DNA of 64,000 bases from positions 45,086 to 109,085 of the forward strand of contig MU271234.1 in the NCBI GenBank assembly GCA_021432655.1, given 5' to 3'. The DNA comes from Atractiella rhizophila (taxonomy: Eukaryota). The position numbers and the translations under genes are program-made. Below the pieces are notes generated by a model that was given only the letters and a program-made list of their open reading frames with translations, had not been told where the DNA came from and ran no database searches. Shown here piece by piece: positions 24,019 to 30,375 of the stretch (position 1 is its first letter; every line of letters begins with the position of its first letter).

Positions 24019-25638
24019 CTACGCAGTTCTGGCAGCCTTCACATCCCGCACCTCCTTCACGTAGTCATCGAACAGAGTCATCGCATCGTGAGGGCCACTA
24101 GCGTGCATAAAACAAATCAGGTCATAGGTACTAGTACACAGAAAAGAAATACGTACCCATAAGCTTCTGGATGAAACTGAGCGGCCCAACAGCGTACTCC
24201 GGACTCAGCAGTCGACTTGATACCTTCCACAGACGCATCTAACGCATCGCTTCCATTATTTTCCTTCTGTTTGATCAGAATTGCATTCACGAACCATTTG
24301 CATCTGTTCCGGATCGAATATCAGCAAAGCACGTGCAGGATTTGGTTAAAACCACTCACTCAGAAAGAACAGCTCCCAACCATCCGGGAAGGGGTCTTGA
24401 AGCTTCAAAGCGTACTTTGCATCTCCAATGAGCTCCTTTCACCTTTGGAAGGAAAGAAAACTGACCTGATGGTTCTGACTTGTCACAAGCACCCTTCCCT
24501 TCTTGATACTTCGACTTTCAGCGGTACAAAGCACGGGCTGATTATGCCCTCTATTTCCGAACCTCATCCTCTCAACCTCCAACCCAGCAGCCATCCCTAC
24601 AATCTGATTTCCCATGCAGATTCCAAAGATAGGCTTCTTCCATTCCGCAATGGTTTTCCTCAAATTCAGTGCTGCTTCCATGCAGTGCGTAGGATCCCCC
24701 GGCCCATTAGAGAGGAAGAGACCGTCATATTCGTTTCGAATGGAATAGAAGTCTACATTCCATGGAAGAACCGTCACAGAGGCACCACGAGCGACCAGTG
24801 AGCGGGCAATGTTAGCCTTCGCTCCAAAATCGACCAGGGCAATCTTCACGTCGCCTTCAGGATTAAGGGTGTAAGCTTCCTTAGTTGACACCTTATCGAC
24901 GAGATTCTCTTTCGACGGGTCCCAGAAGTCGCCCTCCTTCACGGATTGCAAATGATCGTCCCCAACCGCAATCTTGCCCAACGTGGTTCCCTGCTCACGC
25001 AAAATCTTGGTGATCTCCCTTGTGTCTACCCCGGTAATCCCAGGTACTTCGTAGCGTTCACACCACTCGTGAAGACTCTCCACAGCCTGATAATGCGAAT
25101 ATTTCTCTGCCAAGTCAGATACAATCACCCCGGCAACTTTGATCCCGTCGCTCTCTAGCTGGGGGATTCCATCCACAAAATCGTTTGCCGGGACACCATA
25201 ATTCCCTATCAGAGGAGTGGTGAAGACGAGAATTTGAGACAAATACGAAGGATCTGTCAGAGATTCCGGATACGACGTTATCGATGTAGAGAAGACCGTC
25301 TCTCCGAACCGAGAGACTGGTGCCCCAAAGGAGGTCCCTGTGAACTTCTCGCCAGTTTTGAGATGAAGAGTGGCGGGAATGGAAGTGTCGCGTCCAATGG
25401 ATGCAGACGCAGACGCAGGTGGAGCCGGAGCAGATCCGTGCCTGGAATTACTGGAGGAGAAAGTCCTCCGTCCCCCAAACCGGAGGATAAAAACTGAAGA
25501 CGATCGAGTACTCGAGTTTGACGAGAGAAAGGGACGGGATTGGATACCGGTTTTGATTGCTTTTGAGTAAAGGGAAGAGTGGGATGAGGGCAAGACGGCG
25601 AAGAGGGAATTAATTGGAGCGAGTTTTGAAAACGACAT
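24019..25638 (-). CDS. CPA1: Arginine-specific carbamoyl-phosphate synthetase small subunit (arg-2/CPA1), with mitochondrial-type presequence
   Basis: YPESLTDPSY, PLIGNYGVP, LSNGPGDP, PIFGICMG, GNRGHNQP, TSQNH, QFHPE. Confidence 0.95.
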
Positions 25639-25771
25639 CGGAAAGATAGTCTAGCCTAACTTGAGTACTCTTTTTCGCTGGTGTCACTGAAAGCCTGGCG
25701 CAAGCCCGAATCAGAACTCGCCAGTAACCACAAACTGCCCCTAAATGAAAGAAAGAAATAAATACGCACAT
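25610..25771 (-). promoter_or_regulatory. Arginine attenuator peptide (AAP) upstream ORF overlapping the CPA1 start codon
   Basis: AT|GTGCGT...TTCTGAT...CCAG|G (75-nt intron 25769-25695) gives MLSVTPAKKSTQVRLDYLSDVVFKTRSN-stop. DYLSD core matches the N. crassa DYLSDHLW and yeast DYISDHIWKT AAPs. Confidence 0.8.
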
Positions 25772-26537
25772 CGACTTTTTTGAGGTAATAACAGTGTTGT
25801 GTGAGTAGTTAAGGAATGATTATTCCTTGAGAGCAAAAGTGTTTTTCAACCGACGAGGCTCAATGAAAAATTGAGGTGGTTGGATGTTCACCTTGTCGCT
25901 TGACTCACCCAAATTCATCCCTCAATATGCATCAACGTGCATTAACCACGAGAAGGGTTGCAGTTGGAATCATACTACACCTAGTGAGGAGGAAGCGTTA
26001 GGGGAAGTGCCATTGGCAGCAAGAGCTTCTGACAATGAAACTCACACAGAAATATACTCGGTTCACAAGTGGGTCCGTTCGGCGTTGTTGGGAGGCTTGA
26101 ATGAAGCTTTGAAATTTGGCAATCAAAATCAAACATCAAACTTCAAAACATTGGGACACCTCAAAGTGTGCATCAGAAGACATATATTGCAATACTAATG
26201 ACCAAGAATAAGAACCATCATAGATGCTCACGTAGTCAAAACATTTAATAAAATCGAGGAAATTACGAAATAATCACAGAAAACTTTAGATTCCTGCACA
26301 TCAAAATTGGAGAGGTTGGGCAATCCTCACTAAGTCTTATTAGTGATTGCTATGATTTGGTTAAAAGATCGCTGAAAGAGTGAGCTTGAAATAAGGAGGC
26401 ACACTGGCGTCAGAAGAAACGGCACAGTTAAAGGAGCAGCGAAAGAGGAAATAACGAGATTATGTATATCGGGTATATTATACTTCGAGTACATGAATAC
26501 AATCCATTATCCCTACCAAACCCAAAACATTATAGTA

Positions 26538-30375
<3,838 letters not shown>

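Follow-up and report, generated by a model that had tools for sequence, protein, structure and literature searches.

A candidate arginine attenuator reading frame overlaps the predicted CPA1 start codon in Atractiella rhizophila

Can the reading frame of an arrest peptide run across the start codon of the gene that it controls? This question is raised by the leader of CPA1, the gene for the small chain of arginine-specific carbamoyl-phosphate synthetase, in a stretch of 64,000 nucleotides (nt) of Atractiella rhizophila DNA (contig MU271234.1, positions 45,086 to 109,085; hereafter the window). All coordinates below are those of the whole window, and the CPA1 feature lies on its minus strand. 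The arginine attenuator peptide (AAP) is the best-studied eukaryotic metabolite-sensing arrest peptide, and all AAP models known to us assume that the arrested ribosome blocks scanning upstream of the main start. In the CPA1 leader of the window, by contrast, a small upstream open reading frame (uORF) with an AAP-like core ends inside the CPA1 frame, an arrangement that an earlier note on this DNA had read as a dual-coding switch. We find that the uORF does overlap the sole AUG available to CPA1 and that ribosomes reading it finish downstream of that AUG; the use of this AUG and arginine-dependent stalling are what we infer from the arrangement. The parts of the leader, all on the minus strand, are as follows.

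25770..25885, minus strand: leader exon 1, free of ATG; its terminal AT gives the first two bases of the uORF start codon
25695..25769, minus strand: leader intron of 75 nt (GTGCGT...CAG), which splits the uORF start codon between AT and G; its length is divisible by 3 and no in-frame stop interrupts it
25610..25694, minus strand: part of the uORF in exon 2, namely the G of its AUG, 27 codons and TAA
25613..25651, minus strand: AAP core plus tail, DYLSDVVFKTRSN, spanning 13 residues, first Asp through final sense codon
25636..25638, minus strand: main AUG of CPA1, inside the uORF codons GAT GTC; sole in-frame ATG between the stop at 25653-25651 and 24681
25610..25638, minus strand: dual-coded overlap, read as D-V-V-F-K-T-R-S-N-stop by the uORF and as M-S-F-S-K-L-A-P-I-N in the +1 frame of CPA1

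On the unspliced strand the open reading frame extends over 25771..25610 (minus) and would encode a peptide of 53 amino acids (aa). Once 25769..25695 is removed, the uORF consists of 28 codons, MLSVTPAKKSTQVRLDYLSDVVFKTRSN, and stops at the TAA 25612-25610. Since the first base of the intron is itself a G, the uORF has the same AUG with or without splicing. Reading of the intron sequence also reveals a branch-site-like CTGAT about 20 nt before its 3' end. The context of the uORF start codon (uAUG) is weak, with T at -3 and C at +4, and no ATG occurs between 25885 and the uAUG (25885-25772, minus strand). Further upstream, ATGs are found at 25942 and 25932 (5-6 codons each) and at 25918 (32 codons, ending at 25820). 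These would be on the mRNA only if its 5' end lies further upstream, a point that the transcript contigs described below cannot place.

The overlap itself could be confirmed on the minus strand as it had been described, with the ATG 25638-25636 inside GAT GTC. This ATG stands in the +1 frame relative to the uORF, and the overlap of the two frames amounts to 26 nt when sense codons alone are counted and to 29 nt when the uORF stop is added. Measured on spliced RNA, its distance from the uAUG is 58 nt, and it is the first AUG that a leaky-scanning ribosome meets after the uAUG. The CPA1 frame is closed by a TAG at 25653-25651, five codons upstream of ATG 25638, and, as had also been claimed, no other in-frame ATG precedes the CPA1 core: the next one, at 24681, is deep in the catalytic core. 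Because of this upstream TAG and the distance to the next ATG, AUG 25638 is the only AUG able to start CPA1. A fusion of the uORF with CPA1 by +1 frameshifting was considered, as the frames do differ by +1, and rejected for want of a slippery or other supporting feature. As a separate observation, the 436 nt that follow the CPA1 AUG (25200-25635, minus strand) contain no ATG in any frame; in mononucleotide shuffles of this stretch 4.7 ATGs were present on average, and 0.8% of the shuffled sequences lacked any. This may reflect the C/T-rich composition of Ser/Pro codons, or it may mean that leaky scanning beyond a weak main AUG is tolerated.

Then, over 24300-26300, we placed contigs from four public sequencing runs, which come from no more than four studies. 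The record of one run gives a root metatranscriptome, and the types of the three others are guessed or unknown. The features that the contigs add to the list above are two.

24466..25694, minus strand: whole of exon 2, comprising the uORF part, the overlap and CPA1 codons 1-391; contig X2 is colinear with it over 24466-25693
24415..24465, minus strand: second intron, 51 nt, within the CPA1 coding region; joint 24414/24466 in all four runs

First, the 75-nt leader intron is skipped in all four runs (contig joint 25693/25769), the CT..AC borders on the plus strand corresponding to GT..AG on the gene strand; the 51-nt intron is likewise skipped in contigs of every run. The leader intron is thus real and in frame, as the earlier note had it. 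Second, contig X2 continues from its colinear part through the joint and covers 25769-25880. Since it runs unbroken from the CPA1 core into the uORF, no further intron separates the two, and the uORF is carried on the same spliced RNA contig as CPA1. Third, the leader upstream of the intron measures at least 112 nt by contig cover, with contig X4 reaching 25862 before a small indel. The 53-aa form made by intron retention is possible; it was not seen among these contigs, which show the spliced form only and as a type of data drop rare variants. Two other observations concern the upstream end. The X1 contig departs from the leader at 25803 into unrelated sequence, which resembles an assembly chimera and not a transcript end. 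Also, X1 and X15 contigs of low depth (2.7-4.3, where CPA1 in X15 has 377) lie over 25957-26202 upstream of CPA1, separated from the CPA1 contigs by a gap at 25886-25956; a longer leader in minor amounts, a separate transcript or carried-over DNA are possible sources.

What is known of AAPs from excerpts of the papers cited sets the terms for judging this uORF. At high arginine the AAP halts the ribosome on the stop codon of the uORF, and the stall raises initiation at the uORF (PMC7969011; PMC7038982; PMC11550727). Exchange of the critical Asp for Asn abolishes regulation, as described for D12N in Neurospora (PMC7038982) and D13N in yeast (PMC7969011). The native uAUG context is inefficient (PMC7969011), and ribosomes get to the main ORF through leaky scanning (PMC7969011, PMC11550727). 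For this reason the earlier claim that re-initiation is impossible here changes little, even though it is correct that readers of the uORF finish past the main AUG. Among basidiomycetes, a conserved and ribosome-occupied uORF is reported for Cryptococcus CPA1, a target of nonsense-mediated mRNA decay (PMC7049704), and a putative AAP uORF for Coprinopsis (PMC12230235).

The uORF of the window resembles the AAPs of N. crassa arg-2 and S. cerevisiae CPA1 in several respects. It is a single short uORF in the leader of the same gene, with the CPA1 small-subunit frame downstream on the same RNA; it holds the D-Y-L/I-S-D core with its critical first Asp; and it begins at a weak uAUG suited to leaky scanning. 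Across the six frames of the window, 128,000 codon positions in all, the single DY(L/I)SD motif is the one in this uORF. It differs from them in layout, as its stop, instead of lying upstream of the main AUG with a spacer, is 26 nt past AUG 25638 and inside the main ORF, and it is the Asp and Val codons of its arrest motif that supply the main AUG. The core residues V-V-F and the start codon split by an intron set it further apart. A sequence search of the PDB with this peptide and that of a related contig (L001, below) returned no AAP chain, and a full-text literature search on the motif strings returned nothing relevant. The sequence thus supports a diverged AAP-type uORF of the kind found in CPA1/arg-2 leaders.

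A metagenome scan yielded five CPA1 loci, of which three (L001-L003) have a readable leader, while L004 and L005 come with almost no upstream sequence. The three leaders hold the following uORFs.

L001: uORF MLWTERTSDDYISDLVYTISRH; 13 residues from Asp to stop; 120 nt from stop to main AUG
L002: uORF MLWTQRTSDDYLSDLVFTLP after removal of a 46-nt intron (GTAAGT...TAG); 11 residues from Asp to stop; 47 nt from stop to main AUG
L003: uORF with the same peptide as L002, 48-nt intron; 11 residues from Asp to stop; 39 nt from stop to main AUG

These loci group with Phaffia in a tree (SH-aLRT 98), where we disregarded the placement of L003, whose translation has a frame break or an intron. The earlier note had pointed to the leaders of related basidiomycetes as a comparison, and a DY(L/I)SD core is indeed present in all three, in uORFs at the same leader position as in the window and with the same uAUG context (T at -3, C at +4). 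Their cores read DYISDLVY (L001) and DYLSDLVF (L002, L003), so that the V-V-F continuation, singled out before as a variant of this gene, is present in the window and yet has close counterparts (L-V-Y or L-V-F) in each relative. Judging by these sequences, a hydrophobic-hydrophobic-aromatic continuation of the core (V-V-F, L-V-F, L-V-Y) is a recurring basidiomycete variant. Known AAP peptides have 13 residues from the core Asp to the stop. The earlier note had stressed that this length is kept, and it holds for the window and L001 and gives way to 11 in L002 and L003. Since the variant core is common to the relatives and the overlap is not, the overlap is the unusual part. Its origin may lie in one codon: after the GAT of the second core Asp, L001-L003 have CTT or TTA (Leu), where the window has GTC (Val), creating the ATG. 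The introns of L002 (L002:1757-1802) and L003 (L003:127-174) lie within the uORF, after codon 9, and split the codon of the Asp that precedes D-Y-L-S-D. As the intron of the window lies at the start codon instead, the position of the AAP-leader intron is not conserved among basidiomycetes.

The downstream ORF matches Pfam PF00988 and PF00117, with CPSase_sm_chain from residue 91 and GATase from residue 268. Its best homologues are basidiomycete arginine-specific carbamoyl-phosphate synthetase small chains, none of them more than 73% identical. A rapidly built tree gives the protein a long branch and does not resolve its place among Mixia, Microbotryomycetes and Agaricomycetes, which marks the organism as a deep-branching basidiomycete without a near relative in the collection searched. 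The part before the first domain is listed here.

25369..25638, minus strand: pre-domain extension of CPA1, 90 codons, rich in Ser, Arg and Lys and free of acidic residues up to about position 84

This extension is presumed to be a mitochondrial presequence. Differences between the four runs and the window bear on whether it is coding. Of 14 differences listed in 25282-25549, 12 are synonymous third positions in the CPA1 frame and 2 are first positions. For codons 30-83 the count is 8 of 10 synonymous third positions, and by our own arithmetic the chance of at least 8 of 10 falling on third positions is about 0.003 if positions are random. With codons 30, 38 and 39 among the synonymous changes, coding in the CPA1 frame is shown to reach back to codon 30 at the least. 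Over the same contigs, the exon-2 part of the uORF, overlap included, is identical in all four runs. In the long pieces of X1 and X2, for which all 22 and 21 differences are listed, none falls in 25550-25693. By comparison, the leader exon has 1 to 4 differences among runs and the coding stretch after the uORF differs by about 4.5%.

From these parts we propose the following mechanism, which we consider probable with some reserve. Scanning ribosomes would first reach the weak uAUG, where some would translate the 28-codon uORF while the rest would scan the 58 nt on to AUG 25638. At high arginine, the nascent D-Y-L-S-D-V-V-F peptide would halt the ribosome that makes it at the stop of the uORF, AAT 25615-25613 being in the P site. 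Counted from the A of the CPA1 AUG, that P site comes 23 nt further downstream. As this is shorter than a ribosome, the arrested ribosome would mask the CPA1 start codon itself. A ribosome covers about 12 nt on the 5' side and about 15 nt on the 3' side of the first P-site base, and collided ribosomes are about 30 nt apart. With such footprints, a pre-initiation complex could not put AUG 25638 in its P site beside the arrested ribosome, and a newly initiated 80S would meet it after about two codons. The arrested ribosome would thus also block a ribosome newly initiated at AUG 25638, and the effect would be stronger than that of a distant upstream block to scanning. At low arginine, uORF ribosomes would terminate 26 nt inside the CPA1 frame; as they end there they would be lost for CPA1, and the enzyme would be made by leaky scanning only. 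The sign of the regulation would be that of the known AAP, arginine lowering CPA1, with the block acting on the start codon. Tentatively, and at somewhat less than even confidence, we suggest that one first-position change from Leu (CTN/TTR) to Val (GTC) made an AUG within the sensor that now is the sole AUG start of the enzyme, that sensor and mitochondrial presequence are dual-coded over 26 nt, and that what was a roadblock thereby became a switch that masks the start codon or works by collision, perhaps with collision-triggered mRNA decay coupled to it.

Several observations weigh against this proposal, and two other explanations draw on them. The first is that the AAP has decayed: arginine sensing would be lost, the overlapping uORF would act as a constitutive damper, and arginine would control the gene elsewhere, for example at transcription. 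Neither the 27-aa nor the 53-aa form matched PF08252 (Leader_CPA1) at E <= 10. The related L001 peptide reached 12.2 bits (E 0.13) over its DYISD core, below the gathering threshold of 18.5 bits. In addition, the residues after the second Asp are V-V-F and depart from the canonical H-L/I-W; this ascomycete continuation is taken from the earlier note and unconfirmed. If its Trp or His were essential, itself an unconfirmed premise, arginine sensing could be lost. Overlapping uORFs in general also repress without any stalling. Against decay, D-Y-L-S-D, an aromatic residue three positions on and the 13-residue distance to the stop are all kept, and the L-V-F/L-V-Y cores in independent contigs argue for selection on the variant core. 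Moreover, the uORF is invariant in all four runs while flanking leader and coding sequence vary, and a mere damper needs no conserved peptide; this invariance is modest support, since the haplotypes are few and related. Weighing both sides, we regard decay as unlikely, though it is the best placed of the competing explanations.

The second explanation, scarcely behind the first and likewise improbable in our view, accepts a functional AAP and places the start of CPA1 at a near-cognate codon past the uORF stop. AUG 25638 would then be weak, little used or accidental, and the layout canonical. The context of AUG 25638 is indeed poor, with C at -3 and T at +4, whereas an A stands at -3 of the main AUGs in L001-L003. 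The overlap is absent from all three relatives whose leaders can be read and was seen only in this species and close strains. The pre-core extension, at 90 residues, is also longer than in relatives (about 30-70), so that the true start could be a downstream non-AUG codon, in which case there would be no overlap. Starts at codons 16-32 would give a presequence of the relatives' length, and in-frame candidates with G at -3 are TTG 25593, ATC 25557 and ATC 25545. On the other side, AUG 25638 is in frame, open and first in line for leaky scanning, and the lack of any other ATG in any frame for 436 nt leaves CPA1 no alternative AUG. The synonymous-only codons 30, 38 and 39 establish that sequence upstream of 25522 is coding; these strain differences cannot separate AUG 25638 from a near-cognate start at codons 16-28, such as TTG 25593 or ATC 25557. 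Finally, a chance ORF and motif coincidence in a non-coding leader is hardly credible, for although the peptide is short and fails the Pfam model, its motif has a single occurrence among 128,000 codon positions, which falls in the leader of the only gene known to have it, with related peptides at the same place in L001-L003 and a uORF that is invariant among strains.

Outside the CPA1 locus, ORF fragments at 26530-28003 (minus strand), upstream of CPA1, resemble a multi-exon P-type ATPase on visual inspection; one segment, for instance, contains GDSEQTA.

The uORF of the window shares with the AAP-like uORFs of L001-L003 its position, its uAUG context and the hydrophobic-hydrophobic-aromatic continuation, whereas theirs end 39-120 nt short of the main AUG, whose -3 base is A. 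We know of no arrest-peptide uORF with the main AUG inside its arrest motif. The uORF2 of ATF4 is an overlapping inhibitory uORF, and N. crassa cpc-1 uORF2 overlaps an N-terminal extension (excerpt of PMC5487733). Like these two, the uORF of the window terminates out of frame inside the main frame, and its readers cannot make the main protein. Unlike it, the ATF4 and cpc-1 uORFs act by the timing of re-initiation and not by a metabolite-sensing arrest peptide. Arrest-peptide uORFs that sense metabolites include hCMV gp48 uORF2, the plant AMD1 S-uORF and mammalian AMD1 MAGDIS (excerpt of PMC7038982). The likeness to gp48 and AMD1 is in the proposed nascent-peptide arrest at the uORF stop, which would lower translation of the main ORF; sequences and effectors are unrelated. 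No description of an AAP that overlaps its main ORF was found in the literature searched, outside which the key comparative AAP surveys lie, and the novelty of the layout is therefore provisional.

If AUG 25638 is unused or the peptide is blind to arginine, the element would merely be a diverged copy of a textbook one. If the proposal of a start-codon mask is true, this locus would test how near to a start codon an arrested ribosome may sit and still regulate. It would also mean that natural AAP cores can have V/L in place of H and F/Y in place of W, and that an arrest motif is dual-coded with the presequence of the enzyme that it controls. Together, these comparisons suggest that a change as conservative as Leu to Val can bring a start codon into a regulatory uORF.

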